NCBI GenBank assembly: GCA_004376375.1 | Contig: SOJX01000009.1 | Location: 17,570 to 81,569, forward strand | DNA from: Planctomycetota bacterium | GTDB lineage: Bacteria > Planctomycetota > E44-bin39 | DNA: 64,000 bases | Direction: 5' to 3' | Shown here: one piece after another, positions 31,726-48,708 of the stretch | Position numbering within the stretch: the stretch's first letter is position 1 | Layout of the letters: each line of letters opens with the position of its first letter | The notes under the pieces: generated by a model | Database searches by the model: none | The model's input: the letters and a program-made list of their open reading frames with translations, nothing else | What the model was told of the DNA's origin: nothing | Translations under genes and position numbers: made by a program

Positions 31726-32469
31726 TCAGTGTAGCCAAGAAGTTATGCTTATGTCGGGCCAGCGCAAACAAAGGTGTTGGCTTTTCGGCAGGTACGACAT
31801 AACGGGCACACGAAAACGGCTTCGACGTAACTGTTCCATATGCATACATTTACGCCTCTCCGACCCCATGGGTTTTGGCGCGGCGGTCGGGCCGTGCGCA
31901 TAACCGCCGTTACTGAGCTGGTGCGTTTCGAGCATCCCTATCCCGCTTTCGAGCTCGCTCTTGTAGCCTCCCGTATGGAGGGCCATCTCGGAAAGGAACC
32001 ACGAGCCGATTGAAAAACCCCAGTTGTCGAAATCGTTCCCGCCGCCGCCGCGGTCGGTGATGTGTGCGGCCACGTAATCGGCAGCGTCTTTCAAAGCACC
32101 GGACTTGGGATCGTCGCCGGCCGCGAGCATGGCGAGCCCGCAATAACTCGCCGATACAATCGGTCCCGCCGGCGGCGGATATCCGCTGTTCTTCCAGTTG
32201 CTGCGGATGTAATCCAGTCCTTTGCTCGATGCCCCGGACCAGCTCGCGGGCTTGTTGGGTGAATTGGAGATTTTCCCGTTTATAGTCCCCGGTCCGGTAC
32301 CGGTGCCGGTCCCGGTTCCCGAGCCTGTTCCTCCACCGCCGCCACCGCCGGAACGGGAAGATTTATGCCCGTCAGAGCAGGACGGGATTAACGTCAAACC
32401 GATAGCCGCTATCAATATTATTATGAAGTGTGTTATGCTTACGGCGTTGAATGAATGTTTGTGTTTCAT
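31726..32469 (-). CDS. secreted lipoprotein with Gly/Thr-rich linker; possibly 3'-truncated
   Basis: Start set at MKHKHSF, with RBS GGGAG upstream. Signal peptide plus LIPSC. Linker (G)7TGSGTGTGTGTGPGT. Repeat-like GGYAHG / NWGFS segments. The last 45 or so codons look non-protein-like and run into a lower-GC region. Confidence 0.45.
   Translation of the reverse strand: MKHKHSFNAVSITHFIIILIAAIGLTLIPSCSDGHKSSRSGGGGGGGTGSGTGTGTGTGPGTINGKISNSPNKPASWSGASSKGLDYIRSNWKNSGYPPPAGPIVSASYCGLAMLAAGDDPKSGALKDAADYVAAHITDRGGGGNDFDNWGFSIGSWFLSEMALHTGGYKSELESGIGMLETHQLSNGGYAHGPTAAPKPMGSERRKCMHMEQLRRSRFRVPVMSYLPKSQHLCLRWPDISITSWLH
32285..32345. repeat. GGN/ACN-type hexanucleotide low-complexity coding repeat (Gly-Thr linker)
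   Basis: ccggtaccggtgccggtcccggttcc... encodes the TGSGTGTGTG linker. Confidence 0.7.
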
Positions 32470-32529
32470 TCCCTTTTCTCCCTTCCGTGCTTGCGTATGT
32501 GTCATGGACAGCCTCGTTACACTCTGATG

Positions 32530-35028
32530 TTATTTCTTCTTTGACAGGACCACCGTGAGCGCGACAACCTTCGTAGTTGCAACGCAGTCCTCGTTAGAAA
32601 GAATGACAAACCAGTCATCGTTGGATGGGATAATGAAATCCCCCGACTTTGAAGATATGTTATGAGAGATTTCATGGGCATCGAACGAGGCGCCGCCGGC
32701 GTAGGCCATGAAGTTTGCGGAATCGCAGATGAAGAAATCCGCGTGCGCGTTACTGCGGACGTAGCTGAAAGTTTTGGCGTGCAGTGGCTCCGGAACGCTG
32801 TCGACGGGGCAGGTTCCGTGCATCATTTCCGACGGCACCTCAACCGCGAAATCGAGTTTGTAGTTGTCGAGAGGACTTGGCAGCTGACCCGCCGCGCCCG
32901 GCTTCGGCACGGGTATGCTCCCGCTGAGGGTCGCCGAGCGGGATACCGTCCCCTTGTCTTCGACTTTTACCGATTCGGTCGTGCCGTCTCCAACGATGCT
33001 GTTGATTTTGATTCCGAAACTTTTCGCTGATGCAAGCGCAACGTTGCATTTGCCGGAAGTGTCGGTATAGCCGATTCCGGCGTACTGCGGCCTCGGGTGC
33101 CCCGCGCTGGAAATCTTCAGCTGCACGCCGTCGACCGGGTTGCCGTCCGCGTCCGTGACGGTCATGTCGAGCCTTTTGACGCTGGTGTATCTTTCGGTGA
33201 TGGTCTCCGAATACCCGTCGCCGCGCCACGACAGGACGGCCGAGATCGGCATCCACTCCCAGCCCCAGTCGTCGTAAGCGCGGGGGTCGTCAATCATAAA
33301 ACCGTTCCACTCCGACTTCGAGGGCTCCCACTGGACCCATCTTCTATCGTAGAACTCGTTCCACTTGTGGTTGTTCGCGTGACTGCCCGTCGCGGCCCCC
33401 GGGATAAGCGCGGTTCTTGTCGCCGCGGCCGTGACAATTGCATGCGGCGTGCAGGAGCCGCTGTGCGTGTGATGTATCGAAAGAGGCTGAGTGGGATCAG
33501 GTTTGCCGCCGCCGCCAACGAAACTGATGTTTATCCATTCGGCAACCGCGGCGATAGCGTCGTTATCGTCACTGTTTTTCTTGCACTTCCATACGCTTTG
33601 ACATCCGATAAGCACGTCTTTCAGCGGGAAATAAGTAACCCTGTCCGGCGGATCGCAGAGATTGAAGAAAAAGTCGCGCCAGAAATAGCCGTCGATATAC
33701 TGCGGCTCTTCCACCATGACGACGGGATGCACAATGTAGTAGTAGTATATATCTCTCGGAAGCTCTACCTGTTTGCGGACTCCCCCCTCTTCGACCCAGT
33801 ACCTTGTGGTGGAGTAGTAATTCGGATCGCTGCCCGAAGTTCCGTAATCGATAACATCGACATAATCAAGCACGTCATCGGCCGAGTAGATATGCTCGGC
33901 ATTCTCCCTGATAATCGCGAGGTCCATTACGGCGAGGTCTTCATGCGCGATGTGGGCCACGCAGAAAACTATCTCGTCGAGGTATGGGTCGGACGCGTCC
34001 AGTATCAGCCGGGCGCACGAATCCTGAATGCTGCTGCCCAGGAATGAGAAATTCTCCGCCAGCTCGTGTGCAAGCCATTTTGGCGCTTTCTCAACCGCGT
34101 CTTTCGCAAGCGAAGTCAGGTTCTCCTGCGGGCGCAGGACCTCGAGGGCCGAACTGCTGCTGTTGAAACGGACGCAGACGCGCTCGCCGGCCGGTATCCT
34201 TACTTCCAGGCTTACCGAGTCCAGTTTCTCCCACGCGGGGTCGGTTACGGTTATCGAAAACTCCTCGCCCGCGGTCTTTTGCGGCGAGCTTGAATCCTCG
34301 ACCCGGACCGCGAAATCGAAAATACCGGCCGTGCCGGGCGTACCGGAGATTTCGCCGGTCGACGGGCTGAGGCTGAGGCCGTCGGGAAGCGAGCCGCTAA
34401 GGATCGACCATGCATAAGGAGTCGTACCTCCTGCCGCACTTAGCGTTCCGCTGTACGCGACTCCAAGTACGGCGTCCGGGAGCGATTCGGTCTCGAGCGT
34501 CAGCGCGCTTCCGGGCTCCTCAATAATTATGGAAAACTCCTTCGTCGCCTCCTGCAACGGCGCACTGCCGTCAGTAACTTTTACGGTGAAATCGAAACTA
34601 CCCGCTGCGGTGGGGGTACCTGAAATTCTTCCTGTCGATGGTGTAAGGTTAAGACCGCTCGGCAGAAAGCCGCTTGAGATGGACCATGTGAAGGGAGAAG
34701 TACCCCCTGCCGCAGTGAGAATTCTGCTGTATGGAATTCCAACCGTACCGCCCCAGAGCGAATCAGTCGCTATCCAGAGCGGATTCGCACCTGTTCCGGT
34801 TCCGGATCCTGTGCCGCTGCCCGTTCCTGTGCCTGTTCCCGTGCCGGTGCCTGTTCCCGTTCCTGTTCCTGTTCCCGTGCCGGGGCCCGTCCCTGTGCCA
34901 GGCCCGGTTCCCGTACCGGGTGGGTTCTGGCTGCTGCCTGATTTCTTGTTACTGCCGCACCCCGGCAGGCAAAATGTCAAGCCGAATACGGTTACGATTA
35001 CGATGAGAATAAAATAGACCCGTTTCAT
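32530..35028 (-). CDS. transglutaminase-like lipoprotein with two putative Ig-like repeats and a long (GT)n linker
   Basis: 832 aa. Signal peptide with lipobox LPGC. Linker of about 45 residues of GTG/PGT. Two repeats P(F/Y)(T/A)WSI(S/L)SG(F/S)LP(S/D)GL(N/S)L(T/S)PSTG(R/E)ISGTP. Transglutaminase core GSCTPHAIVTAAATRTALIPGAATGSHANNHKWNEFYDRRW (Cys...His...Asp). ATGA overlap with the STAS gene. Confidence 0.7.
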   Translation of the reverse strand: MKRVYFILIVIVTVFGLTFCLPGCGSNKKSGSSQNPPGTGTGPGTGTGPGTGTGTGTGTGTGTGTGTGTGSGTGSGTGTGANPLWIATDSLWGGTVGIPYSRILTAAGGTSPFTWSISSGFLPSGLNLTPSTGRISGTPTAAGSFDFTVKVTDGSAPLQEATKEFSIIIEEPGSALTLETESLPDAVLGVAYSGTLSAAGGTTPYAWSILSGSLPDGLSLSPSTGEISGTPGTAGIFDFAVRVEDSSSPQKTAGEEFSITVTDPAWEKLDSVSLEVRIPAGERVCVRFNSSSSALEVLRPQENLTSLAKDAVEKAPKWLAHELAENFSFLGSSIQDSCARLILDASDPYLDEIVFCVAHIAHEDLAVMDLAIIRENAEHIYSADDVLDYVDVIDYGTSGSDPNYYSTTRYWVEEGGVRKQVELPRDIYYYYIVHPVVMVEEPQYIDGYFWRDFFFNLCDPPDRVTYFPLKDVLIGCQSVWKCKKNSDDNDAIAAVAEWINISFVGGGGKPDPTQPLSIHHTHSGSCTPHAIVTAAATRTALIPGAATGSHANNHKWNEFYDRRWVQWEPSKSEWNGFMIDDPRAYDDWGWEWMPISAVLSWRGDGYSETITERYTSVKRLDMTVTDADGNPVDGVQLKISSAGHPRPQYAGIGYTDTSGKCNVALASAKSFGIKINSIVGDGTTESVKVEDKGTVSRSATLSGSIPVPKPGAAGQLPSPLDNYKLDFAVEVPSEMMHGTCPVDSVPEPLHAKTFSYVRSNAHADFFICDSANFMAYAGGASFDAHEISHNISSKSGDFIIPSNDDWFVILSNEDCVATTKVVALTVVLSKKK
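34786..34925. repeat. long hexanucleotide low-complexity coding repeat encoding the (GT)n linker
   Basis: About 23 tandem degenerate copies of ccnGTn; the opposite frame reads PVPVPVPV. Confidence 0.75.
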
Positions 35029-35387
35029 GCTGTATTCTCCTTTTGTGATTCTGGACGACGATAACTATGTGCATTTTCGGAAAATTTGCCCAGCGCAGCA
35101 GAGGCGAGCCACTCGACGCCGAGGCTCCGGACAGGTGGAAAGATATCGACGCTCAGGTTTCCGTTTTGACACTTAACCCAGTCGAGAACCGTAACGCCGA
35201 TAGAGTCAATCGATGTTATTTTACGAAGGTCGAGCATGATTTCCCGACTCTGGAATTCTACCGCGGACTGCAGAAGCTCCAGAATCCTCCTGGCAGTATG
35301 GCCGGTGAACTTGCCTGCAACCTGCAACCGTAACTTTCCGTTTTCGTAACAGAATAGGGTAAATGCGACTTTCATGATAATTTCCAT
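35025..35387 (-). CDS. STAS-domain protein (anti-sigma-factor antagonist, SpoIIAA-like)
   Basis: 120 aa. LDLRKITSIDSIGVTVLDWVKC fits the STAS signature. Directly downstream of a sigma-54 promoter. Confidence 0.6.
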   Translation of the reverse strand: MEIIMKVAFTLFCYENGKLRLQVAGKFTGHTARRILELLQSAVEFQSREIMLDLRKITSIDSIGVTVLDWVKCQNGNLSVDIFPPVRSLGVEWLASAALGKFSENAHSYRRPESQKENTA

Positions 35388-35427
35388 ATTTTAGAGCAAA
35401 AATTATTGGAATCGCTACTATTGATTT

Positions 35428-35443
35428 AGCAAGATTTGAGCCA
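35428..35443 (-). promoter_or_regulatory. sigma-54 (-24/-12) promoter TGGCTC-N5-TTGCT driving the STAS / transglutaminase-lipoprotein operon
   Basis: Minus-strand read TGGCTCAAATCTTGCT against the consensus TGGCACGnnnnTTGCW: two mismatches, exact GG-GC spacing. About 40 nt upstream of the STAS start codon. Confidence 0.55.
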
Positions 35444-35540: not shown

Positions 35541-35588
35541 GTGTCAACTGTATTGACACATTACGGTCTGTGTCAATGTAGTTTACAC
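35541..35588. promoter_or_regulatory. two tandem palindromic candidate enhancer (UAS) sites GTGTCAA-N5-TTGACAC and GTGTCAA-N5-TTTACAC
   Basis: Perfect 7-bp IR at 35541-35559 and a one-mismatch copy at 35570-35588. Centres 29 bp apart. 100-150 bp upstream of the sigma-54 promoter and directly beside the sigma-54 activator gene. Confidence 0.45.
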
Positions 35589-38500
35589 TATCTTGGGCGT
35601 TGGATTCCCCACTCTTTTCTCTTCTTGAAAATCTGCTGTCGGCTGACACCGAGCAGTTTTGCCAGTTGGGTTTCATTGTGATTATGCTGGTGAGCGAGAA
35701 TGAATTCTTTCATATAATTTTCAAGTGAAAGTTTACGGCTGATTATGCTTTCCGGTTCAGGCTGATGTTCCCGGCTGCTCATTACTTTCACAATGTCACC
35801 GGTAGTAATGCGGTTGCCGGCCATTACGAACGCCTGCTGGAGTATGTTTCGCAGTTGTCGCACATTGCCGGGATAATTGTAGCCGGACATTTTCGCAAGC
35901 GCCTCCGATTCAAGCGGTTTTTCAGGCACGTCCAGATCACCGGCAAGTTCATTGAGAATGTGCTTTACAAGAAGCGGGATATCTTCGCGCCGCTCGCGAA
36001 GAGGCGGCAGCTCGATGCGGACAACGTTTAATCTGTAGAAAAGATCTTCACGGAACGCGCCCTGCTCCACAAGCTTTTCGAGCGGCATGTTGGTCGAGCA
36101 CACCAGGCGGATGTCAATGGGAATCGGCATCGCGGTGCCTATCCGCCTGACCTCCCGTTCTTCGATGACGCGGAGAAGCTTAACCTGCATTCCGAGCGGC
36201 ATGGAGGCTATTTCGTCCAGGAACAGAGTACCGCCGTCCGCCGACTCAATAAGTCCTGTTTTATCGGAGCCCGCGCCCGTGAAGGCGCCTTTAACGTGCC
36301 CGAAAAGCTCGCCTTCAAGCAGCGATTCCGTCATGGCGCCGCAATTGATCGAAACGAACGGCCCTTCCTTCCGGCTGCTGTTGTAGTGGAGCGCTTTTGC
36401 GACAAGCTCCTTCCCCGTCCCCGTTTCGCCGTAGATGTAGGCGGTCAGGTCGGTATCGGTAACGGAATCGAGGAGGCTGAAGAGTTCGCGCATCGGTTTC
36501 GACTGCCCTACGATGCTGGTGTAGGCGTACCGTGTCCGCACCTCTTTCTGAAGGGAGCTAAGCCTTGTCCGCATCTTTTCCTGCTCGACGGCGTTGGAGA
36601 TAATAGGCGCGATACGCTCGGCGAGTGCTTCGACGAAATGGAGATCGGCTTCGGTGAAACTGCGGGCGAGCGACGTGGTATCGAGATAGACCACCCCCAT
36701 CGTCCGGCCTTCGCTTTTAATCGGCACGCAGAGCACCGAGCAGAGGCTGAGGTCTACCACGCTTTTCGCGTCGCGAAGCGATTCGTCCATGTTAACGTTG
36801 GCGACAAGCCTTGACTGGCCGCTATTGATGACTTCTCCAACCATGGTGTGGCTTGTCTGGTATTCGGGCGAAGTGATTTCCCTGTCGCGAATGTTACGCA
36901 CCGACAGGTGTTTGAGGCCGGCACCCTCATCGACAAGGATGATAAAACCGCGCTCGGCCTGGATAGTGTCAAGCACCATAGCGAGTGCGAGGTCAAGCAG
37001 CTTTTCAACGTCAAGCTCGGTCGCGGCGAGGCGCGCGATCATCTCGAGGAGCGCCATCTCCCGCCGCGCTACATGACTATCGTATACGCCGTGGATATCC
37101 AGGACCTGTTGATCGAGTGTAAAATCCTCTTCGGGGAACTCGGTTATTTTTTCTTTTCCAGGCGGTCCTTTCCGGAAGGGGTCAACGTCATCCAACGGGC
37201 TGAAGAACGGAGATTCCCTCAGCTGCTGCCTGTCGTACCCTTCGGGCAGCACATCGGCAATGAGTTTATAGGCATTTTCCGCTTCATTGAAATGCCCGGC
37301 CGCGAGCTCGAGATTATCCTGAGTGGAGGCGGCGAGCGCGGCGGTGAGCGCGGCCTCGAAGACGAGTGCGATGTTATCGGTCCGGTATGCGGTTTTCAGG
37401 GCCTCGGCTGCGATTTCCCGGGCCTTTCCAGCCTTGCCGATTCTCAGGCTGCATCGCGCTTTCAGGATAGTGGTTTCGATTCCGGCAGCCATGCTGAGTT
37501 TTTCATTTTCAAGCCGTGCAAGGATTTTTTGCGCTGCCGGGATTCTTCCGGTTGTTATGAGTACCCCGGCCCCGGCCAGTTCGATGCCCCACCCGACCTG
37601 TCCGGTGATTTTCAATTCCTGCGCCTGTTCTATCAGACGGCGGGCGCGTTTGATATCTCCCGTGATCATGGCGTGCCTCGCGGAGAGGGCCAGCGCTTCG
37701 CCGAGCCTTGCAGGGCTCTGCGGCCCGGCAAGCTCCCGGGATTCGGACAGGTCCCGCTCGGCGGCTTCGAAATCACCGCAGAGGAACGCGAGCGCTTCCG
37801 CCCTGAGATTCAGGACCGTTGTTTCCAGCGGCGTTATGCCGGCTTTACGGGCAATCTGAAGGGCCTCTTCGAAGTATGCGAGCGCGTCGGCGGTCCTTCC
37901 GAGTACGGTGCACACCGTTCCGAGAGAGATGGGGCAATGCCGCTTGAGAGTAGAGCTTGCTGTTTTCCCCGCCACTTCACTGGCCTGCTCGAATGAGGAA
38001 AGGGCTTCCCTTGTTCGTCCCGAGGCGAGGTGGACGTCACCTATGTTTATCATCACGGCGCCGATACTTACTTCATCACCCGAAATCTCGAAGAACCGCT
38101 TGGCCGCGGTGTAGGCGTCGAGTGCTTCGTCGTACTGCCCGAAATCCTTGAGCACGTTGCCGATATTTCCCTGGGTGTATGCAACACCCATGAGGTTGCC
38201 TCTTTTTTCATAAGCATCGAGGGCGATATAGTAATGCACAAGCGCTTTTTCCGGTTTCCCTTTTTCCAGATCGATACCGGCCAGCAGGACGTGCATGCGC
38301 TCGAAATGGTCTTTCGCGGATTTCCGCCGCAGTATCCGGTTGGCGCGCTTCACGGCATCGGCATATTTTCCGCGCCCGTAATCAGAACTTGCGAGATGAC
38401 TGTCTATGGTATTAATTTTTTCCTTGTCTTTGAGAGACTTGAAGATGTCCCTTGCCTCGGACAATAACTTTCGTGCTTTCTCAGGCTCGCCTTTGTGCCC

Positions 38501-40921
38501 CGCGACGCGCCCCAGATGAATAAGCAACTCTCCCTTCAGGGGTTTTGAGTTTTTCACCCCCGGTCTGTCCTGCGCTTCCTGAAGGAAGAGTTCGGCTTCG
38601 TCCGCTTTTCCCGACCGCAGGCGAAGAGTAGTATGAAACCACGCAACGGTGGCGGCGTACTCCGGATATTTCCACAGCTCGTCGCTTGAAGCGGCGGTAA
38701 TGCAGTCAAAGACTCTCTCGAGCCTCGCGCGGCGCCAGTAACACTTGGCCAACCAGTCAAGCGCCTCGAACCATCCTTCCGTTCGGCCGGGCAGGCGTTT
38801 CTTGAGCGCTTCGAAAAGCCGGACAGCGGACGATATCACTCCGGTCACCGCTGCATGCTTCGCCCCATCCCAGAGCAGTGGCAGCAGTTCGTCTTCACCG
38901 ACGCCGGCTTTCTCCGCGTGTATCGCGCGCTCTATGAGCTCGGTATTTTTCTTTTTCAGATAAGAATATATCTGTCCGTGCATTGCGCGGCACTGCTCAC
39001 GAGGTATAATACGCAGGACAACTTCACCCAGACGACCGCTCGCGAATGCGTAGTTACCTTCTTCATCGGCCCAGAGCAGTCCACGCGAAAGCAGATGCTT
39101 AACCGCGGCGGCGCATGCGTCGGGCGGTATCGCGGACGCTTCCTGCAGCAGGTCGAATTCGGCGGGGCGTTCGACGCATGCGAGCGCGTCAACGACGACA
39201 CGCTCATCTTCGACCAGCGATTTGATTCTGCGCTGGAGCGCTTCTTCACCTTTTGCCGGCGGTTTCAGGCCGGCAAATGCCGCGGTTGTACGCCATTTCC
39301 CCGCCTCAAAGAAAAGGAGCCCGGTCTCAAAAAGCTGCTGAACGGTCTGCTCTATGATAAGCGGGTTCCCCCCGGCCGCATCAAGCACGGTAGACAGCAC
39401 ATTCGCGGGCAATTCGGAGCCGCCCAGCATGGCGGAAAGCAGTCCTGCCGCGGCTTCCCTGGTAAGCGGAGACAGCGAAACCTGCCCGGCGATTCCCTGT
39501 GCGCTCGAGCGGTCCATATACCCGATCACGGTTTTGGCGGTTTCCACCTCGGTATTGCACGCGCACAGAACAAGCAGAGGCACGTGCTTACCTTCCTGCA
39601 ATCCGAGCCAGAGCACCCGTGCGAGATGTTCGAGAAAGGAAAGGGTGTCTTCGTCAGCATTTTCCAGGTCGTCAATCGAAATAACCAGCGGCCGCAGGGC
39701 CGCTGTTTCCATGAGCAGGAGCGCAATATCGTGCATGACTCTGCCGTGCTTTACCATATCCGGGTCCCGCTCTTCCCCGGCAAGCATGCCCAGAGTTTCC
39801 TCGAACTCATCCAGAGTTTCTTTCGGAAGTGCCTGGATAATATTGCCGATAACTTCCGCAAAGGGACCGTAAGGCCGACGGCGCGAGGCCGAGCATCTGC
39901 ATTTTATGAGCAGGTTGCCTTTCAGTTGGGCAAAGTAGCCTGCTTCGCGCAGAAGGCGGCTTTTTCCGATTCCGGTCTCACCGGTAATAAACCATAGCGA
40001 AGGTTTGCCCGGACCCTCCCTGAGTGAATCCATCAGGGCCCTGAAATGGTCCAGCTCTTCCTCTCTTCCGATAAAACCGCCGCCGAGAAGATATGCAAGC
40101 GCTGTCTCGACCGTCTCCTCTTCCAGTGAAATATCCATGGCCTGGGAGAGCGCGCGATTGACCTCGTTGGCCGTATAATATCTCAAGCCGGGCTCGCGCT
40201 CGAGGAGGCGCAGGACAATACGCTCCAGCTCGACCGGGACATCTATTTTGAATTTACGCGGCGGCTCGGGCTCCGTCGCGGCCTGCAATCTGAGCACCTC
40301 GAGAATTGAATCGTCCTCGTACGGGCGCTTGCCCGCAATGGCTTCATAAAAGACGACGCCCAGCGAATACAGATCGGAGCGCGGATCGCCGAGCTCTCCG
40401 CGGACGACTTCAGGTGCGGCATAGCCTATCGTCCCGCGCATCGAGCCCGATATCGGCGTTTCGGTAGTCGCAAGGCCGAAGTCGATCAGCCTCGCGACCC
40501 GGTTCGTATCGACTATGATGTTGCCGGGCTTGACATCGTAATGAATTATTCCGCGGGAATGTATATGCTGAAGTGCGCGAAAGACCTGAGCGAAAAGACG
40601 GGACCCGTCTGCGAAGTCGAGACCTTTGCACATCTCAACGATATTACTTCCTTCGATGTACTCGGAAGTGTAGAACCACAGGCCGGATTTCTCGTCAAGG
40701 CCGAAATCGTAAACCCGCGCGATATTCGGGTGACGGATTTTGGTGAGGGTCGAAAACTCGTGCCGCATGAGCTCGAGGTGCCGCGTGCCCGGCGTCTCGA
40801 GCAGCTTCAGCGCAAGAAGTCTTTTGTCTTCAAGCCTGTCCCTTACCAGATAAACCTTCCCCGCAGCTCCCTTGCCGAGAAGCTTTTCAACTTTATAACG
40901 GTTTGCGACAACTTTTGGCAA
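35588..40921 (-). CDS. Multidomain regulator: Ser/Thr protein kinase / STAND-type P-loop NTPase / TPR repeats / GAF / sigma-54-interaction AAA+ / Fis-type HTH
   Basis: 1777 aa. Kinase motifs GKGAAGKVY, LALKLL, HYDVKPGNI, DFGLA, GTIGYAAPE. P-loop GETGIGKSRLL. Long TPR-like region. Sigma-54 AAA+ motifs GETGTGKELVAKALH, ELFGHVKGAFTGA, GGTLFLDEI. C-terminal HTH LAKLLGVSRQQIFKKRKEWGI. Confidence 0.85.
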   Translation of the reverse strand: MPKVVANRYKVEKLLGKGAAGKVYLVRDRLEDKRLLALKLLETPGTRHLELMRHEFSTLTKIRHPNIARVYDFGLDEKSGLWFYTSEYIEGSNIVEMCKGLDFADGSRLFAQVFRALQHIHSRGIIHYDVKPGNIIVDTNRVARLIDFGLATTETPISGSMRGTIGYAAPEVVRGELGDPRSDLYSLGVVFYEAIAGKRPYEDDSILEVLRLQAATEPEPPRKFKIDVPVELERIVLRLLEREPGLRYYTANEVNRALSQAMDISLEEETVETALAYLLGGGFIGREEELDHFRALMDSLREGPGKPSLWFITGETGIGKSRLLREAGYFAQLKGNLLIKCRCSASRRRPYGPFAEVIGNIIQALPKETLDEFEETLGMLAGEERDPDMVKHGRVMHDIALLLMETAALRPLVISIDDLENADEDTLSFLEHLARVLWLGLQEGKHVPLLVLCACNTEVETAKTVIGYMDRSSAQGIAGQVSLSPLTREAAAGLLSAMLGGSELPANVLSTVLDAAGGNPLIIEQTVQQLFETGLLFFEAGKWRTTAAFAGLKPPAKGEEALQRRIKSLVEDERVVVDALACVERPAEFDLLQEASAIPPDACAAAVKHLLSRGLLWADEEGNYAFASGRLGEVVLRIIPREQCRAMHGQIYSYLKKKNTELIERAIHAEKAGVGEDELLPLLWDGAKHAAVTGVISSAVRLFEALKKRLPGRTEGWFEALDWLAKCYWRRARLERVFDCITAASSDELWKYPEYAATVAWFHTTLRLRSGKADEAELFLQEAQDRPGVKNSKPLKGELLIHLGRVAGHKGEPEKARKLLSEARDIFKSLKDKEKINTIDSHLASSDYGRGKYADAVKRANRILRRKSAKDHFERMHVLLAGIDLEKGKPEKALVHYYIALDAYEKRGNLMGVAYTQGNIGNVLKDFGQYDEALDAYTAAKRFFEISGDEVSIGAVMINIGDVHLASGRTREALSSFEQASEVAGKTASSTLKRHCPISLGTVCTVLGRTADALAYFEEALQIARKAGITPLETTVLNLRAEALAFLCGDFEAAERDLSESRELAGPQSPARLGEALALSARHAMITGDIKRARRLIEQAQELKITGQVGWGIELAGAGVLITTGRIPAAQKILARLENEKLSMAAGIETTILKARCSLRIGKAGKAREIAAEALKTAYRTDNIALVFEAALTAALAASTQDNLELAAGHFNEAENAYKLIADVLPEGYDRQQLRESPFFSPLDDVDPFRKGPPGKEKITEFPEEDFTLDQQVLDIHGVYDSHVARREMALLEMIARLAATELDVEKLLDLALAMVLDTIQAERGFIILVDEGAGLKHLSVRNIRDREITSPEYQTSHTMVGEVINSGQSRLVANVNMDESLRDAKSVVDLSLCSVLCVPIKSEGRTMGVVYLDTTSLARSFTEADLHFVEALAERIAPIISNAVEQEKMRTRLSSLQKEVRTRYAYTSIVGQSKPMRELFSLLDSVTDTDLTAYIYGETGTGKELVAKALHYNSSRKEGPFVSINCGAMTESLLEGELFGHVKGAFTGAGSDKTGLIESADGGTLFLDEIASMPLGMQVKLLRVIEEREVRRIGTAMPIPIDIRLVCSTNMPLEKLVEQGAFREDLFYRLNVVRIELPPLRERREDIPLLVKHILNELAGDLDVPEKPLESEALAKMSGYNYPGNVRQLRNILQQAFVMAGNRITTGDIVKVMSSREHQPEPESIISRKLSLENYMKEFILAHQHNHNETQLAKLLGVSRQQIFKKRKEWGIQRPR

Positions 40922-41242
40922 AGTAACCTCACAGGCTCCAAAGCAAAGTACATTCTATCATCACCAGATTCAAGCCAAAAAATTCTCGCGTACTGGGGGG
41001 GGTCTTTCTTTCCGCGTAGATGTGTTTCGGGAAAAACTATTTCTGATAACTATAAACCATGTTGTGTGATAACAAACGTAACATCCCGCCTGCATTATCG
41101 CCTTGTTACCCCGGCCATCGCAGGGGTTCTCTCTTGCGTCACCCTTGCGCACACAGGTTTCTCTGAACTGCTTCGGATTGCTTTGAACTGCATATTCGAG
41201 GAGGGTGGGTGAAAAATAAAAGGAACAGCCTGTTACAGAGCA

Positions 41243-41328: not shown

Positions 41329-41457
41329 GATTCTTTAGTTGCCGTGTCTATGCGTTTTCTTTTCCCTTCGAGCCGTATCTCCCATTTTCATTTGAATTTC
41401 CCCAATCCTCGCATATAATTCATCTATAAGGAAGTAAACCTAGAAATTATCCTTACT

Positions 41458-41520: not shown

Positions 41521-41710
41521 GTTCTTCAAAGGTATTTCTCAATTTTTCTCATTATTTTTTTGAAATGTTTTTCGAACCGGAGATGCTCTTCGAATGTTTT
41601 ATAAGCCATTTCAGAATATTGCCCGTAATTGCTTTCGATTTTCCGTAAAGCACTTCCTGTTTCGGATGCGGTCTCGACACAAACGCCACATCCCGTTTTT
41701 TGCACAAACT
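41519..41710. repeat. about 190-bp segment roughly 93-95% identical to 46065..46260 (3' ends of paralogous genes, same orientation)
   Basis: Direct comparison of the two loci: near-identity through the last 60 or so codons, then decay to about 70%. Confidence 0.7.
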
Positions 41711-42824
41711 CTCCCAGCGTCGTTTCGTTGTTAACAATCACAGGCAGCCCTGACCTCAGGGCATAAGCGACTTTGCCGGAAGACAAGCCGATTACCTTGA
41801 TATTACTCCATCCACTGCGTCTTGAGCGGACAGGCTTATAAAAAGCTATAATCGCATCCGCGCTTGAAATAAGCTGATCAAATAATTTTCTGGAAGCCGG
41901 TTTTTCAGAAAAGATTACTCTTGAATTTCCTTCAGCAATATCTTTAAGATATTCCCATCGATATTTGTTTTCCTCTCCCATTTTATTAGCATGAAAGTGT
42001 GTATGGATTACCAGGACCCAATTGGCGGGCCATTTCCTCGAAGCCGGAATGATATCCTCAAGCATCGTCCATTCGCTTAAACCCCCGGCATGAAGCAGGA
42101 TTTTTTTTCTTTTGTCAATGTCAAGCATTTCGTGCCAGAAATTGAATCTTTTCTTCATCAAAGGCCCGCCAGGCGAGTTGGGGAGGTATTGGAGCTTATG
42201 GATGGGGATTAAATTATCCTGCGCAAACAGATCACCTCTTTCCTTGTCCTGTATAATTACAAAACGCGCTCTCCTGCTGTAGGTTTTTTCGATATTTTTA
42301 AATAGCTTCTCTCTCGGCTCCGTGATTTCTCCAGACAGCAGCAATTCCAGGGAAATATATATAAAGGGTATGCCAAGAATGCGATACAGCGCCGAAGACC
42401 TGTATGCTATATCTTTCATTGGCAAAATTCCTTCAGGTTCAATAACGATAAATAAAGAATATGGCTTTTTCTTCCAAAGCCTATACAAGCACATTTGCTC
42501 AGAATTTCTGCTGATAAAATCCTGGATTTTTATTAGCCACCGTTTGAGCTTGTTGGAAAATGGTATTGCAGGTTCCTTATTTGTTTTTGTCAGCTTTTTC
42601 TTATCATTATTCTGTCGAATTTCAAAATATCGCACCTTATTTGCATCGAAATCGGGAGATACTGCAAAAGGCGTTTTAATTGAATATATGTCAACAGAAT
42701 ATCCTTCTTTTGCCAGATAATCAATCATGCAATGAAGCGTAGGTACCGAATCAAGGTAAGCATGTGGACATATAATACATATTTGTCTTATACTCAACGG
42801 TATATCCTCAGCAAATATTTTCAA
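41526..42824 (-). CDS. putative GT-B-fold glycosyltransferase-like protein, paralog A
   Basis: 432 aa. C-terminal GLSSGKVAYALRSGLPVIVNNETTLGEFV resembles GT1/GT4 nucleotide-sugar binding regions. C-terminal 60 aa nearly identical to the protein at 46072..47343. Confidence 0.45.
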   Translation of the reverse strand: MKIFAEDIPLSIRQICIICPHAYLDSVPTLHCMIDYLAKEGYSVDIYSIKTPFAVSPDFDANKVRYFEIRQNNDKKKLTKTNKEPAIPFSNKLKRWLIKIQDFISRNSEQMCLYRLWKKKPYSLFIVIEPEGILPMKDIAYRSSALYRILGIPFIYISLELLLSGEITEPREKLFKNIEKTYSRRARFVIIQDKERGDLFAQDNLIPIHKLQYLPNSPGGPLMKKRFNFWHEMLDIDKRKKILLHAGGLSEWTMLEDIIPASRKWPANWVLVIHTHFHANKMGEENKYRWEYLKDIAEGNSRVIFSEKPASRKLFDQLISSADAIIAFYKPVRSRRSGWSNIKVIGLSSGKVAYALRSGLPVIVNNETTLGEFVQKTGCGVCVETASETGSALRKIESNYGQYSEMAYKTFEEHLRFEKHFKKIMRKIEKYL

Positions 42825-43178: not shown

Positions 43179-43586
43179 ATGGATCATGTGGAAAAAATAA
43201 CCCACGACGAAAAAGTATTGGCCCTTATAGTCCGGAAGGAGTTCCGCCCGGAAAAAACCACCTTCCTCACTCCGGAAAGTTTCAACATACAATTGGGGTT
43301 TGTGATATATCCTGAAAACGGCGAGATCACGCCCCATGCACATAAGCCCCTCAAGAGAGAAATCATCGGCACTGCAGAAGTTCTAATCGTCCAGAAGGGT
43401 AAGTGCATTGTCGACATTTACACTAACCAGGGCGAACCGGTAGCCAGCAGCACCCTGGCTCAGGGAGACATACTTTTTCTGGTTGACGGCGGCCATGGTT
43501 TCAGGATGTTAGAGGATACCGTTCTCCTTGAAGTTAAACAGGGGCCGTACATCGGCCTGGACGAGAAAGAGCGATTCCGGAAATGA
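43179..43586 (+). CDS. cupin-fold protein, candidate NDP-hexose 3,4-ketoisomerase (Tyl1a/FdtA-like)
   Basis: 135 aa, beta-rich, with His residues (HAHKP). Sits immediately before a DegT aminotransferase and a TylM1-like methyltransferase; 4-nt overlap. Confidence 0.45.
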   Translation: MDHVEKITHDEKVLALIVRKEFRPEKTTFLTPESFNIQLGFVIYPENGEITPHAHKPLKREIIGTAEVLIVQKGKCIVDIYTNQGEPVASSTLAQGDILFLVDGGHGFRMLEDTVLLEVKQGPYIGLDEKERFRK

Positions 43587-44713
43587 TTCCCGTAAACGAA
43601 CCGCTTTTCGGAGAGAAAGAACTTGCGTACGTGACAGATTGCGTCCGTACGGGCTGGGTTTCTTCTGCCGGGAAGTACATCAACGAGTTTGAGGAAAAGT
43701 GGTCTGCCTATTGCGGAAGAAAATACGGAGTTGCAGTGGCAAACGGCACGGTAGCGCTTCAGCTTGCAGTGGCTGCGCTTGAACTGGAGTCGGGGAGCGA
43801 GATTATTATGCCGAGCTTTACGATAATCTCCTGCGCTGCCGCAGCCATCTACAACAATTGCATTCCCGTGTTTGCCGACTGTGATCCTGAGACATGGTGC
43901 ATAACGGTCGATGAAATAGTGCCTGGAATAACAGAAAAAACGCGTGCAATAATGCCTGTTCATATTTACGGCCACCCGGCTGAAATGGACCCGATAATTA
44001 ACGTAGCCAAAAAGCACGGACTGGCCGTGATAGAAGATGCGGCAGAAGCACACGGTGCGGAATATCTATCGAATTGCGGCGGTAAGGAAACCTGGAAACG
44101 GTGCGGCAGCTTTGGAGATGTTAGCTGTTTCAGTTTCTACGCCAATAAGCTCGTTACAACCGGCGAAGGCGGAATGTTAGTCACAGATAACGGGCAACTT
44201 GCAGAGCGAGCAAGGCTATTACGTAATCTTGCTTTCGAGCCTGACCGCAGGTTTCATCACGCTGAATTGGGATTCAATTTCCGCTTTACAAATATTCAGG
44301 CTGCTCTCGGCCTTGCACAGGTAGAGCGGATGGATGAAATTATTGAGCGGAAACGCCGAATGGCAAATTATTACTCCAACAACCTGGCCGGGATCGATGG
44401 CCTTCAACTCCCTGTCGAAAGGGATTGGGCAAGAAGCGTTTACTGGATGTATGGGATCGTTATCCATGAAGATACCGGAATGAACGCTGCTCAATTTGCG
44501 GCAAAACTGAAGGAGCGCGAAGTCGATACTCGCCCATTCTTTCTGGGGTTGCATGCCCAGCCTGCCTTGAAAAGTTATATGAATTTTACTGAAAACGACT
44601 TTCCAGTTACAAACCGAATTGCCCGCCAGGGTCTTTACCTGCCTTCGGGGCTCGCCCTCACCGAAGAGCAGCAGGCAGTCGTCTGCAAAGCTGTCCGAGA
44701 GGTTCTGAGTTGA
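43583..44713 (+). CDS. DegT/DnrJ/EryC1/StrS-family PLP-dependent sugar aminotransferase
   Basis: 376 aa. GRKYGVAVANGTVALQLA, and SFYANKLVTTGEGGMLVTDN carrying the PLP Lys. Confidence 0.8.
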   Translation: MIPVNEPLFGEKELAYVTDCVRTGWVSSAGKYINEFEEKWSAYCGRKYGVAVANGTVALQLAVAALELESGSEIIMPSFTIISCAAAAIYNNCIPVFADCDPETWCITVDEIVPGITEKTRAIMPVHIYGHPAEMDPIINVAKKHGLAVIEDAAEAHGAEYLSNCGGKETWKRCGSFGDVSCFSFYANKLVTTGEGGMLVTDNGQLAERARLLRNLAFEPDRRFHHAELGFNFRFTNIQAALGLAQVERMDEIIERKRRMANYYSNNLAGIDGLQLPVERDWARSVYWMYGIVIHEDTGMNAAQFAAKLKEREVDTRPFFLGLHAQPALKSYMNFTENDFPVTNRIARQGLYLPSGLALTEEQQAVVCKAVREVLS

Positions 44714-45483
44714 AAGAAGCCTTTGGAAAAACATATTCAGAGGCATACGACGCTTTTTACAGAGAAAAGGATTACGGTGCCGAATGCGACCTTATTCAAC
44801 TGATTTTCAATAAATATGGTCAGGGCAAAATCACACGAGTTCTTGACCTGGGGTCCGGCACGGGAAATCACGCCTGTCACCTGGCAGCACGAGGATACAG
44901 GGTAACCGGGGTAGATGCCTCCGAGCACATGCTGAATTATGCCCGGGAAAAATGTGCCGCTACCGATCAGAAAAACCCGCCGGAGTTTCACCAGGGCGAC
45001 ATACGGTCAGTCAAACTCGGGGAAAAGTATGGCGCCGTTTTGATGATGTTTGCCGTGCTTGGTTACCAGGTTACCGACGCGGATGTCCTTGCCGCTTTAA
45101 AAACTGCAAGAAATCATACGGATGCAGGCGGACTTCTCGTTTTTGACACATGGTATGGTCCGGCCGTCCTCAATGAAAAGCCGGGCAGGCGCGTATTAAA
45201 GATCCCGACCGGCGATGGTTATTGTTTGAGAACGGGTGAAGGTACTTTGAATGTCGAGCAGCATATTTGCACGGTAAATTATCATTTGCAGTATTTTACC
45301 GAAGACAAGATGATTTCCGAATCCCGGGAAACGCATCTGATGCGCTATTTTTTCGGGGATGAGGTCAAGTTATTCCTCCGGGAAGCAGGTTTCTCGTTTT
45401 TGCGGATGGGCGCATTTCCGGATTTTGACAAGGAACCAAGTGAGGATACCTGGAATGTAATTACTGTTGCGAAAGCCGAATAA
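44710..45483 (+). CDS. SAM-dependent methyltransferase resembling TylM1/DesVI NDP-3-amino-sugar N,N-dimethyltransferases
   Basis: 257 aa. AYDAFYREKDYGAECDLI, VLDLGSGTGNHA, HQGDIRSVKLGEKYGAVLMMFAVLGY parallel the TylM1 pattern YDLFY..KDYAAEA / LDVACGTG / HQGDMRDF.LGRKFSAV..MFSS.GY as I recall it. Confidence 0.6.
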   Translation: MKEAFGKTYSEAYDAFYREKDYGAECDLIQLIFNKYGQGKITRVLDLGSGTGNHACHLAARGYRVTGVDASEHMLNYAREKCAATDQKNPPEFHQGDIRSVKLGEKYGAVLMMFAVLGYQVTDADVLAALKTARNHTDAGGLLVFDTWYGPAVLNEKPGRRVLKIPTGDGYCLRTGEGTLNVEQHICTVNYHLQYFTEDKMISESRETHLMRYFFGDEVKLFLREAGFSFLRMGAFPDFDKEPSEDTWNVITVAKAE

Positions 45484-46071: not shown

Positions 46072-47343
46072 TCAAAGGTATTTCTCAATTCTTCTCAGTA
46101 TTTTTTTGAAATGTTTTTCGAACTGGAGATGCTCTTCGAATGTTTTATAAGCCATTTCAGAATATTGCTTGTAATTGCTTTCGATTTTCCGTAAAGCGCT
46201 TCCTATTTCGGATGCGGTCTCGACACTAACGCCACACCCCGTTTCTGTTACAAACTTCCCCAGTGTCGTCTTATTGTTCACTATTACAGGCAACCCTGAC
46301 CTTAAAGCATAAGAAGCTTTACCAGAAGACAAACCAATTACTCTCATATTAGTTAGTAAATGACGCGCATTGCCTGTGGGAGTTGGAAAAGCAATTATTA
46401 CATCAGCGCTCGAAACAAGCTTGTCATATTTCTGTCTGCTTGCAGGGTGTTGAGAAAAAACTACCTTTGGATTACCTGAAGCAAGTTTTTTAAGAAATTC
46501 CCAACGAATAAGCTTAGCCTCAGGCATTTTGTCATTGATTAATGTTGTATGAATAACCAATATCCAACCTGTTGGCCATAATTGAGTAGATGAAATGACA
46601 TCTTCAAGCGTAGTCCATTCCGCGAAGTCTCCTGGATGAAGTACAACTTTAATATTATCCTCTAAGCCAAATTCCTGATGCCAATATCTAGATTTCGATT
46701 TTTCCGCTAACATAAGAGGCGAGTTCGGAAGGTATTCAAGCTTATGCATAGGAATAAAGTTATCTTGCGCAAACAATTTTCCCCTATCTTTATCCTGGAT
46801 AATATTAAAAAAACTTCTTTTACTATAAACACGTTCCAGTTTTTTAAATACGGATTCTCTCGGGTTGAATAATTCATAGGACAATATAAGCTCAAGAGAC
46901 AAATAAATAAAAGGGATACCTAAAAATCGATATAGGATTGACGATTTATAGGCGATATGCTTCAAAAAGGGAATTCCTTCCGGTTCTACAACTATAAAAA
47001 AAGAATATGGGCGAGTAGTCCATATTTTATATAAACGATTTATTTCCGCGAATCCCCCGATAAAATTAAAAAGTTTCCTGATTGCTCGCTTAAATAGAAT
47101 CCAAAGGCGCGATATTTTCAAGTTGTTCTTTTTTAATCCGGCAGACTCCTCTATTATGTTAGTAATATCGATGAATCTTACGTTTCTAGATTCAAACTTA
47201 GGGGTTGTAGTATGAGGAGACAAAAATGAAAAGACGTCTATAGAATATCCGTTTCTTGTCATTAAATCAATTAACCCGTGCAGAGTTGGCACGGAATCCA
47301 AATAAGCGCTCCGGAAAATTAGGCAAACGGATTTTTTTTTCAT
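46072..47343 (-). CDS. putative GT-B-fold glycosyltransferase-like protein, paralog B
   Basis: 423 aa. Same architecture as 41526..42824. N-termini diverged; C-termini nearly identical. Confidence 0.45.
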   Translation of the reverse strand: MKKKSVCLIFRSAYLDSVPTLHGLIDLMTRNGYSIDVFSFLSPHTTTPKFESRNVRFIDITNIIEESAGLKKNNLKISRLWILFKRAIRKLFNFIGGFAEINRLYKIWTTRPYSFFIVVEPEGIPFLKHIAYKSSILYRFLGIPFIYLSLELILSYELFNPRESVFKKLERVYSKRSFFNIIQDKDRGKLFAQDNFIPMHKLEYLPNSPLMLAEKSKSRYWHQEFGLEDNIKVVLHPGDFAEWTTLEDVISSTQLWPTGWILVIHTTLINDKMPEAKLIRWEFLKKLASGNPKVVFSQHPASRQKYDKLVSSADVIIAFPTPTGNARHLLTNMRVIGLSSGKASYALRSGLPVIVNNKTTLGKFVTETGCGVSVETASEIGSALRKIESNYKQYSEMAYKTFEEHLQFEKHFKKILRRIEKYL

Positions 47344-47802: not shown

Positions 47803-48708
47803 ATGACAGTGGGGTCTGCAGCTGTGAGTAATTTTGTCGAGAGCAATGGGAAAGACATGAGAAAACTTGAGTTAGCCATTGTAATGGGCATAACCGACAA
47901 TTGGGCCTTCGCTGTAGCGACTATTCTATTCGCCCTGCGGAAAGATGCGAAGAGAATCAATTTTGACGTCATCGTATTTCATGACGGCTTGTCCCGGCGC
48001 TCTAAGAACCTTTTATCTGGGATTCATCCTTGTATGTTTTTGGACTATGAACTCGATCTAATAGACGCTGACAAGTTTGCTCGTGTATCTAAGATGGCTT
48101 TTGCGCGTTACGAATGCTTTGCATTGCTTGAAAAGTATTGCCAGGTATTGTGGATTGATGCCGATGCGCTTCTCAAAAGCAGTATTTTACCACAGGTGAA
48201 TAGTGAAAACTCAGGCATATCAATGTATTGCCACAAGGATACACCTATTAGCGTAAGCTTTACGGATGTCGTTGCAGGTTATAACATGGAAAAAGAATGT
48301 TACAACGATGGCATATTGTTATTGTCCGATAAATTGCCGAAATACGAGCAGCTCAGGCAGTGGTGTTACGAAAAAACAAACGAATGGGCAACCAAAATAA
48401 GTTCAGACCAGGCGATAATCAACCTGATGCTCCAGGAATTCGATCTGGATGTTACGGAGCTCGATATCAAGTTCAACTGCCCTCCGGAGAAGGAAACCAA
48501 CAGTACGGTCATAATCCATCCCTGGGGAGAAAGAAAATTCTGGAACAGGCTTGTTCACCCTCTTTGGGACAAGTATTATTACAAGTGGAGAAAGATGGGG
48601 GGGGATGGTCCTGAAATCAAACGCGGGCGCCGATCGAGATACGTGAACCTGAGACTGGTGAAACACCGGCTCCGCCTTTTCTGGAAAGAATTCAAGTCTT
48701 CGGACTAA
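47803..48708 (+). CDS. putative GT8-like glycosyltransferase
   Basis: 301 aa. N-terminal ITDNWAFAVATILFAL, DxD-like WIDADALL, and general GT-A layout. A weak call. Confidence 0.4.
   Translation: MTVGSAAVSNFVESNGKDMRKLELAIVMGITDNWAFAVATILFALRKDAKRINFDVIVFHDGLSRRSKNLLSGIHPCMFLDYELDLIDADKFARVSKMAFARYECFALLEKYCQVLWIDADALLKSSILPQVNSENSGISMYCHKDTPISVSFTDVVAGYNMEKECYNDGILLLSDKLPKYEQLRQWCYEKTNEWATKISSDQAIINLMLQEFDLDVTELDIKFNCPPEKETNSTVIIHPWGERKFWNRLVHPLWDKYYYKWRKMGGDGPEIKRGRRSRYVNLRLVKHRLRLFWKEFKSSD

Follow-up and report, generated by a model that had tools for sequence, protein, structure and literature searches.

Within a 64,000-nt stretch of a planctomycetotal contig (SOJX01000009.1, positions 17,570-81,569; assembly GCA_004376375.1, Planctomycetota bacterium, E44-bin39), which is referred to here as the window and provides all coordinates, a gene on the reverse strand encodes a 1777-residue protein that is predicted to be a NifA-like enhancer-binding protein (EBP) with a STAND kinase of the PknK/MalT type as its regulatory region. 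Judging from its sequence, residues 1 to about 1290 would form the STAND kinase (a non-RD Hanks kinase, a P-loop nucleotide-binding oligomerisation domain (NOD) and a tetratricopeptide repeat (TPR) sensor), while residues from about 1290 to 1777 would form a complete sigma-54 activator (GAF, AAA+ with GAFTGA, and helix-turn-helix (HTH)), and the product is predicted to be a cytoplasmic one-component regulator. The best model, which we hold to be fairly probable, is that STAND-driven oligomerisation, gated by the GAF domain, assembles the NifA-like activator at the adjacent operon of a STAS protein and lipoproteins. The combination of regulator, private dyad, sigma-54 promoter and STAS-lipoprotein cassette appears to have been duplicated at least 10 times in this genome. 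Eight paralogue loci fetched for comparison are designated L001-L003 and L077-L081, and related proteins from the protein search bear P-numbers (P0003, P0007 and so on).

The gene is a single frame that runs unbroken through 1777 codons to its stop; it begins with TTG, just after the sequence GTGAGG. The paralogues, 1754-1785 amino acids in length, use ATG at the same start position (MPK...). An earlier reading of the window made from the letters alone (the sequence-only reading) had described one continuous gene of this size, and a check for a frameshift or mis-join was negative, the frame being intact and its length that of the paralogues. Likewise, the order of domains, the intact kinase motifs and the complete EBP module of that reading are borne out by a Pfam scan, with the quoted motif strings found in place, and its idea of several inputs within a single polypeptide is upheld. 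The protein is a 100% match to an NCBI entry labelled just 'tetratricopeptide repeat protein'. The features are collected in the table.

Features of the window discussed in the text (positions within the 64,000-nt stretch; promoter, operator and activator sites are predictions)
Feature	Position	Strand	Details
Kinase-STAND-TPR-GAF-EBP gene, 1777 aa	35588..40921	-	Open reading frame and Pfam; identical to NCBI TET39252.1
Hanks-type Ser/Thr kinase domain, residues 9-249	40175..40897	-	Pfam Pkinase PF00069, E 1e-41
STAND NOD, residues 283-439 with motifs to 521	39359..40075 (given for the domain)	-	AAA_16, E 1e-27
TPR sensor array, Pfam-detected residues 768-1106	37604..38620	-	Five TPR_12 and TPR_MalT (E 8e-13)
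GAF domain, residues 1303-1441	36599..37015	-	Pfam; directly before AAA+ as in NifA
Sigma-54 interaction AAA+ and lid, residues 1470-1721	35759..36514	-	Pfam and motifs
Fis-type HTH, residues 1745-1771	35609..35689	-	HTH_8, E 8e-5
Dyad ATTGACAC-N8-GTGTCAAT, perfect	35577-35552		Centre 123 nt upstream of -24 GG
Dyad GTGTCAA-N5-TTGACAC, perfect, TGT-N11-ACA form	35559-35541		Centre 108 nt upstream of -24 GG
Sigma-54-type -24/-12 element TGGCTCAAATCTTGCTA, TGGCTC-N5-TTGCT	35427..35443	-	Ends 40 nt before STAS ATG
120-aa STAS protein (E3J72_00990)	35025..35387	-	PF01740, 23.5 bits against a cut-off of 22.6
832-aa lipoprotein	32530..35028	-	Signal peptide, lipobox LPGC, (Gly-Thr/Pro)n linker, He_PIG, transglutaminase-like, Big_1
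259-aa protein	31726..32505	-	Lipoprotein-type signal LIPSC, Gly/Thr linker; begins 24 nt after the 832-aa gene
Sigma-70-type promoter of kinase-EBP gene	40945..40973	-	TTGAAT (40973-40968), 17-nt spacer, TACTTT (40950-40945)
Conserved upstream box GAAACACATCTACGCGGAAAG	41028-41008	-	Also in L001 and L002
Conserved upstream box TTATAGTTATCAGAAATAG	41055-41037	-	Also in L001
19-bp perfect inverted repeat CTGCATAAACAGGTTGACA	41243-41261, 41310-41328	+, -	Arms 48 nt apart; 270-355 nt upstream of the -35 box
Type I restriction R subunit	269..3334		
TerB_N/TerB/TerB_C protein	5192..7555		
BrxC/D-like ATPase	7539..8861		
DEAD helicase	8871..11078		
PD-(D/E)XK nuclease	11519..12775		
DruE1	12781..18339		Druantia type I set, 1958 bits
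DruD	18374..19459		Druantia type I set
976-aa protein	19444..22374		No match; within Druantia type I set
DruA	22368..23561		Druantia type I set

Residues 1289-1765 align with full-length NifA (PDB 9qq6_C, E 1e-81). The Sigma54_activat family (PF00158) is matched over its full length at residues 1470-1637 (E 2e-69), followed by AAA_lid_14 at 1642-1721, and the motifs of enhancer-binding proteins are found as GETGTGKE (1498-1505), GAFTGA (1545-1550), Walker B LFLDEI (1566-1571), FREDLFYRL (1623-1631) and GNVRQL (1685-1690). In an alignment of 40 family members with 24-57% overall identity to the window protein, which also served for the kinase, Walker A, D1569/E1570, the arginine fingers R1624/R1630 and the sensor II residues N1686/R1688 are invariant or nearly so, and conservation of the GAFTGA residues F1547, T1548, G1549 and A1550 is 90% or higher. 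The HTH_8 match reaches 22.7 bits against a cut-off of 22 and was detected when the last 70 residues were scanned alone. The module resembles the NifA-type EBPs, NorR and FhlA included, in the GAF domain placed before AAA+, the GAFTGA loop, the Fis-type HTH and the end-to-end alignment, and differs from NifA in the approximately 1290 residues of kinase, STAND and TPR that precede its GAF domain. Moreover, its match to TIGR01817 (E 3e-105, 353 bits) falls below the equivalog cut-off of 528.85, and no nif genes are found within the window; the module would thus be NifA-like, and not NifA.

In the kinase domain, the motifs were mapped as GKGAAGKV (16-23), K39, E55, HYDVKPGN (127-134), DFG (147-149) and APE (169-171). 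The whole Hanks catalytic set (G-loop, VAIK lysine, alpha-C glutamate, D..K..N, DFG, APE, the aspartate of subdomain IX and the arginine of subdomain XI) is there, and the closest relatives in the PDB are StkP, PknA and PknB (E 1e-35). The arginine of the RD class is missing, HYD being found in place of HRD; the sequence-only reading had noted this substitution among otherwise intact motifs, and the alignment of the 40 members confirms it. In fact, H127, D129, K131, P132, N134, D147, G149, E171, D183 and R247 are invariant and K39 and E55 are kept in 39 of the 40 members, while position 128 is occupied by Y in 16, G in 10, H in 5, N, C and R in two each and F, S and Q in one each, and is thus other than arginine in 38. 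The same reading had allowed for a pseudokinase, and the replacement of the HRD arginine could indeed point to a catalytically dead scaffold. This is nevertheless most improbable: the G-loop and the catalytic residues are invariant or nearly so across the family, a residue other than arginine at position 128 is the family norm, and the kinase is the best-conserved domain among the paralogues. Because the other catalytic residues are invariant or near-invariant and only position 128 varies, HYD is taken to mark a non-RD kinase family and not a decayed enzyme, and would change the expected regulation, not the membership in the Hanks superfamily. Non-RD kinases are usually independent of activation-loop phosphorylation and tend toward control by localisation or oligomerisation.

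The middle of the protein is predicted to belong to the STAND class because of its Walker A motif (GETGIGKS, 314-321), its Walker B motif (VISIDD, 413-418) and a conserved GxP motif (GGNPL, 517-521); G314, G317, G319 and K320 are conserved among the 40 members, and G518 and P520 are conserved in at least 90%. A double autoinhibition has been described for this class, whose bacterial representatives are mainly transcription activators and Ser/Thr kinases (PMC6468293). In MalT, PH0952 (6mfv) and Mycobacterium tuberculosis PknK, too, the AAA_16 P-loop NOD is marked by Walker A, Walker B and GxP motifs and is followed by an arm, predicted here as well, and by a MalT-like TPR sensor; one relative is labelled 'PknK' by JGI. 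In PknK a Hanks kinase is the N-terminal effector, as here. The window protein differs from these three systems in that it carries both kinds of effector, and its output is a sigma-54 AAA+ ATPase rather than a LuxR-type HTH.

As regards the sensor, the predicted structure shows helical repeats that begin near residue 640 and reach 1110 or beyond, with a listed extent from about 640 to about 1290, so that the earlier figure of about 700 amino acids for the TPR array is a fair one. An AlphaFold model of residues 270-1110, built on six paralogues, has a mean pLDDT (predicted local distance difference test) of 76, with a poor nucleotide-binding part. Its top Foldseek match in the PDB is the TPR-sensor STAND protein PH0952 (6mfv_A; E 9e-12 over 814 columns, TM-score 0.20-0.25), a match that is supportive of the STAND-TPR assignment, not conclusive. 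When solved structures were searched with the sequence of the middle region, the matches were to generic TPR proteins alone and to no solved STAND protein. The region is fast-evolving, with only three full-length matches among 1.84 billion representatives.

Fusion of a eukaryotic-like kinase to an EBP had been considered rare in the sequence-only reading, a view that is not borne out by the databases. The best 120 clusters (90% identity) of the protein search all contain Pkinase, AAA_16, TPR, GAF and Sigma54_activat, and the named sources among them are Planctomycetota, Myxococcota, Acidobacteriota, Deltaproteobacteria, Spirochaetales and Limnocylindria. The architecture is therefore common rather than rare in sequence databases, where it is filed under uninformative names such as 'tetratricopeptide repeat protein' or 'sigma 54-interacting transcriptional regulator'; an extra GGDEF domain (PF00990) is present besides the EBP module in P0017, P0018, P0028, P0043 and P0097. 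Full-text literature searches yielded no description of the kinase-EBP fusion or of any family member. The closest relatives, 13 or more proteins with 48-57% identity, have TET3xxxx accessions; ten were checked and several are on shared contigs. They are paralogues of one Planctomycetota genome or population, which holds at least 14 of them. In two scans of GTDB species representatives, among which the lineage is not represented, no close relative was found, the nearest kinase domains showing 37-38% identity. L001-L003, L077 and L078 were also considered as independent orthologues, an option that was rejected as their accessions place them in the same metagenome-assembled genome (MAG) or population; the apparent conservation is therefore re-read as replication within a genome, the loci being paralogues.

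The domains have not diverged to the same extent. Mean identities among the 14 paralogues are highest for the kinase (72-75%) and decrease through AAA+ (69-70%), GAF (63-65%), NOD (about 50%) and HTH (about 40%) to the TPR region, the lowest of all (38-39%). It appears that the TPR input and the DNA-recognition part have diversified, whereas kinase, GAF and AAA+ have been conserved. Shorter paralogues of 827-926 amino acids, which have TPR, the EBP module and in some cases GAF but neither kinase nor NOD, were observed near several cassettes (L001 6357-8840, L002 304-2913, L003 2626-5403, L080 1-2372). Furthermore, two more Hanks kinases (424 amino acids, and 1264 amino acids with TPRs) are encoded directly upstream of P0007 (L079 4284-9415), which suggests a wider expansion of Ser/Thr kinases in this genome, like that of Ca. 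Uabimicrobium amorphum (PMC11032199).

The predicted target of the regulator is found just past its own gene. There, two perfect dyads overlap (35541..35577), with their first base 11 nt past the stop codon, and are proposed, from their form and position, to be an upstream activator sequence; 3 of the window's 9 TTGACAC heptamers are found within 36 nt at this place. The 200-nt spacer after the stop contains a sole GG-N10-GC element, which scores 10/12 against the canonical consensus; its 16-nt core TGGCTCAAATCTTGCT lies at 35443-35428, and the STAS ATG follows 43 nt beyond the core. A matrix derived from the paralogous sites only ranks this element 2nd of 128,000 positions in the window. Of the target proposed in the sequence-only reading, the sigma-54 control is kept, while the site is now predicted downstream, at the dyads, the -24/-12 element and the STAS operon, rather than at a repeat upstream of the gene.

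The same arrangement recurs at the paralogues. The six cassette-upstream regions first compared have the elements TGGCTC-N5-TTGC (window), AGGTAT-N5-TTGC (L077), TGGCAT-N5-TTGT (L078), AGGCAC-N5-TTGT (L002), TGGTAT-N5-TTGT (L001) and TGGCAC-N5-TTGA (L003). The distance from element to cassette start is 43-70 nt at five of the six sites and 176 nt at the L002 site after P0003; in five of the six regions a perfect dyad is centred 108-124 nt upstream of the GG, and L002 after P0003 has an imperfect dyad only, about 136 nt upstream. The spacers after the regulators of three held-out loci (L079, L080 and L081) were then scanned blind and the predicted layout was found in each. In L079 (P0007), CGGTATGTATTTTGCGA scores 16.0 bits (next best 0.0) and the dyad TGTCTT-N6-AAGACA is centred 110 nt from the GG; in L080 (P0014), CGGCATATCTATTGCTA reaches 18.3 bits (next best 3.1), with TGTAGGC-N4-GCCTACA, the only dyad of the spacer, at 108 nt; in L081 (P0010), CGGCATGTGTGTTGCTA has 14.1 bits (next best 11.0), with TGTTGCT-N4-AGCAACA at 109 nt. 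The dyads of the held-out loci as a whole lie 108-120 nt from the GG. The geometry of dyad and -24/-12 element is thereby seen at nine paralogous sites on eight loci, with a private dyad at each. In 248 kb the matrix gives 19 hits that reach 13.5 bits or more, compared with 3.6 in shuffles, and 7 of the 11 non-training hits are located 45-160 nt upstream of a co-oriented gene.

The dyads are specific to each paralogue, and the HTHs are likewise divergent (about 40% identity). A canonical HTH_8 is present in three paralogues, all three of which have TGT-N12-ACA dyads. Specific half-sites are nearly confined to the first 50 nt past the cognate stop, as in L080 (2 of 2 occurrences in 25 kb) and L079 (3 of 4). 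The NifA site is TGT-N10-ACA. By analogy, TGT-Nx-ACA dyads about 110 nt upstream of a -24/-12 promoter are in keeping with a NifA-like C-terminal module, although here the dyad spacing is N9-N12, not N10, and several paralogous -12 elements read TTGT.

Several observations weigh against the proposed wiring. Over the whole window the -24/-12 matches number 5 against 4.1 in shuffles, which taken alone is chance level; the weight of the match derives instead from its position, its replication at the paralogues, the held-out prediction and the specificity of the dyads. All replicate loci belong to one genome or population, so that the shared elements may partly reflect common descent, though their flanks have diverged. 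Many of the paralogous -12 elements are TTGT or TTGA, not the near-universal TTGC. The nucleotide-binding part of the structural model has low confidence, and its TM-score to PH0952 is low. Finally, the TTGACA of the dyads is also the sigma-70 -35 consensus, a TTGACA-18-TACAGT match overlaps the dyads, and the short TPR-GAF-EBP paralogues near several cassettes (L001, L002, L003 and L080) could be the true activators there. These last points, together with the unexceptional score of the window element alone, are what would be expected if the cassettes were driven by other EBPs or by sigma-70 and their adjacency to the long regulators reflected co-duplication only. This explanation is considered rather unlikely, since no second EBP is encoded in the 64-kb window, the dyads begin 3-36 nt past the cognate stop in five loci and are paralogue-specific, the type of HTH co-varies with the type of dyad, and a spacing of 108-124 nt is classical for the activator sites of sigma-54 promoters.

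The presumed target operon begins with the STAS gene, whose stop overlaps the start of the 832-aa lipoprotein gene by 4 nt; because of this overlap, which was found in four loci, the two genes are presumably translationally coupled. The 259-aa gene probably belongs to the same operon. The STAS protein has a D61-S62 motif, and DS[IL]G is kept in all seven aligned paralogous STAS proteins. This motif presumably aligns with the phosphorylated serine of SpoIIAA (S58) and of RsbV (S56). At the eight fetched paralogue loci a similar cassette lies downstream of the regulator, with a 94-116-aa STAS homologue or STAS-sized gene: homologues with 28-55% identity, checked by sequence, in L001-L003, L077 and L078, and genes of STAS size (98-110 amino acids) in L079-L081. 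At least 19 STAS paralogues bearing E3J72_ locus tags were detected by a profile search, and no SpoIIAB-type kinase or PP2C phosphatase appears in the gene tables of the examined loci. Several of the cassette lipoproteins share a signal peptide and Gly/Thr linkers, and some have CAP, peptidase C25/M10 or Kelch domains. The linkers, long (Gly-Thr)n or (Gly-Thr-Gly-Pro)n tracts just past the lipobox (window about 34800-34950 and 32300-32400; also L077 and L078), are encoded by simple DNA repeats, and their length could vary by slippage. In L002, sigma-54-type elements (TGGCATGCCTTTCGCT) were also noted before a STAS-like gene and a CAP-domain gene beside a short EBP paralogue. Short tandem repeats (gggataa/gggatac, cggtac/tcggtac, ggaaaaccg) as well as GC-rich hairpins (gcgccgcttgcggcgc) abound in the spacers around the paralogues (L001 15360-15720, L077 7850-7960 and L078 7600-7950), both resembling genome-wide elements of the repetitive extragenic palindromic (REP) kind.

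Upstream of the regulator gene the picture is different. Transcription of the gene is predicted to start at a conserved promoter of the sigma-70 type and not of the sigma-54 type, the arrangement TTGAAT-N17-TAyTTT/TATGTT being found also before five paralogues. A GG-N10-GC scan of the 604 nt upstream of the gene gave nothing above 6/12. The look-alike TGGCTTGAATCTGGT was considered as an upstream sigma-54 element and rejected, as it is the -35 region of the conserved sigma-70-type promoter. The conserved upstream boxes (41008..41055) are possible operator sites of another regulator. As a separate observation, 3-4 tandem copies of a 16-17-nt unit (ATGTCCCCGAAATACAC) lie at 41458-41519, just past the stop of a 432-aa gene, and the core of this unit, CCCGAAAYACA, recurs inverted at 41021-41031, within the conserved box that precedes the kinase-EBP promoter.

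Farther upstream, the perfect 19-bp inverted repeat of the sequence-only reading does exist, and it had been suggested to mediate autoregulation. If it were the protein's own binding site, controlling a sigma-54-dependent gene, it would be relevant that the repeat is perfect and unique, that each of its arms ends in ACAGGTTGACA(C/T), close to the ACAGTTGACAC of the downstream dyad, and that 4 of the window's 9 TTGACAC copies fall in the two spacers flanking the gene. However, the upstream 604 nt have no -24/-12 element, and the repeat is followed 270 nt downstream by the conserved sigma-70-type promoter. The cassettes have compact dyads, whereas the centres of the two arms are 67 nt apart, and half-sites cluster downstream, with none within 1 kb upstream of the regulator in 4 of 7 paralogue loci (L079, L080, L081 and L002). 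Moreover, the first arm and the loop recur once, in L003, where they precede a STAS cassette and not the regulator gene, while the second arm is specific to the window. This role of the repeat is thus very unlikely, and autoregulation through it is unlikely. No further copy of the repeat is found in the window (0.01 expected by chance). As an RNA, it would fold with -56.9 kcal/mol (z = -3.7), and no Rfam family matches it at E <= 1. A repeated or mobile element was rejected as well, given the single copy in the window and a scan of metagenome contigs with 3 single-arm matches, about the number expected by chance for a 19-mer. Positions 41265-41330 of the window, on the loop side of the repeat, and 18190-18250 of L003, in a spacer that precedes a STAS cassette, have in common a conserved noncoding element of about 50 nt, GCATAAA..GGTTGACACGCGG..AAAAACGCC.TTCCA.TT.CC, without an Rfam match.

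According to the favoured model of STAND-driven assembly at the cassette promoter, the resting NOD would be ADP-bound and held closed by the arm and the TPR region, as in MalT and PH0952. Binding of a paralogue-specific ligand to the fast-evolving TPR sensor would then lead to nucleotide exchange in the NOD and to oligomerisation. With the GAF domain as a further gate, a role known from NifA and NorR, oligomerisation would gather the AAA+ modules on the dyads. At the -24/-12 promoter, at a distance of 108 nt, the AAA+ ring may then remodel the sigma-54 holoenzyme, by which the operon for the STAS protein and the surface lipoproteins with their (Gly-Thr)n linkers would be switched on. As a more speculative last step, the clustered kinases, which would need no activation-loop phosphorylation because they are non-RD, could phosphorylate a common substrate, for which S62 of the STAS protein is the most economical candidate; this would provide feedback or a second output. 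For a STAS protein as the target of a Hanks kinase, the reported precedent is PknD of M. tuberculosis with the anti-anti-sigma homologue Rv0516c. The points named for this step are that the kinase is the most conserved domain, that no other STAS kinase or phosphatase is encoded nearby, and that a relative of the scaffold ends in SpoIIE.

The roughly 14-16 modules may even constitute an NLR-like receptor repertoire wired to transcription, with kinase-to-STAS signalling as a shared channel of feedback or cross-talk; this extension is tentative and we consider it rather unlikely. Each sensor would see a different external cue (a prey, phage or kin molecule) and, by way of its private dyad and sigma-54 promoter, switch on its own set of surface lipoproteins. 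A related proposal is that the protein is an NLR/Avs-like sensor of defence or conflict, in which the STAND-TPR part senses a phage or competitor protein, the kinase is the effector, and the EBP and cassette are an induced response of defence or surface remodelling. The STAND and TPR layout, the fast-evolving sensor (38-39% identity between paralogues) and the large paralogue repertoire are in line with it, as are the similarity of the kinase to the PADLOC PD-T4-6 and Mad6 kinases (E 1e-59 to 1e-55), an NCBIfam MADS6 match, and a defence island 12 kb off that includes Druantia genes and a type I restriction subunit. Nevertheless, such PADLOC matches are generic to any Hanks kinase or EBP: the best 25 are kinase-only or EBP-only (RtcR/PspF, PD-T4-6, Mad6), with no Avs or STAND model among them. 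The MADS6 match (162 bits) is far under the cut-off of 460, and the lipoproteins of the cassettes have Ig-like, CAP and protease domains and are no known toxic effectors. A defence sensor is considered unlikely for these reasons, and this proposal is compatible with the favoured model of an activator assembled at the STAS-lipoprotein operon, not exclusive of it.

Hanks kinases are linked to sigma-54 activators by a known route in Myxococcus xanthus, through EBPs with FHA domains. There, as with PknD and Rv0516c, kinase and target are separate proteins, whereas in the window protein a single polypeptide contains both kinase and EBP, with the STAS gene as the presumed transcriptional target. A closer counterpart of the N-terminal scaffold, about 1300 residues long, is a 1679-aa protein of Ca. 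Uabimicrobium amorphum, given as Pkinase-AAA_16-TPR-MalT_TPR-GAF-SpoIIE in a supplementary listing (PMC11032199 supplement); going by that entry, its output is SpoIIE/PP2C, as against the sigma-54 activator here. No characterised protein with a scaffold of the type Pkinase-AAA_16-TPR-GAF-X was found in the literature searched.

Every domain of the window protein is known and the fusion itself is in public databases; what is new is the predicted cis-regulatory wiring and the extensive duplication of the module within a genome. For the family, this wiring takes a falsifiable form: a sigma-70-type promoter, a TGT-Nx-ACA dyad past the stop, a -24/-12 element about 110 nt further on, and a STAS-lipoprotein operon. 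If the reading as an NLR-like receptor repertoire is true, STAND oligomerisation would directly nucleate an enhancer-binding AAA+ ring, and STAS partner switching would have a new, Hanks-kinase-driven form. With short DNA fragments and truncated proteins, two questions become testable, namely whether STAND-type oligomerisation can be the assembly switch for an enhancer-binding AAA+ ring, and by what coupling a fused Hanks kinase acts on sigma-54 transcription and possibly on STAS partner switching. Furthermore, the at least 10-fold duplication, with diversified sensors and DNA-binding helices, would offer a natural experiment in the evolution of regulator-operator specificity.

Among the other features of the window, positions 269-23561 are a defence island, the genes of which are listed in the table; its GC content is 0.55-0.62 in the 12-24 kb part, against 0.44-0.46 in the adjoining sequence. 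On the other side of the regulator, two paralogous genes for proteins of 432 and 423 amino acids, 56% identical and without a Pfam match (41526..42824 and 46072..47343, both on the reverse strand), bracket a sugar-modification cluster with a DegT aminotransferase (43583..44713) and a methyltransferase (44710..45483), and a GT8 glycosyltransferase (47803..48708) lies just beyond the 423-aa paralogue.

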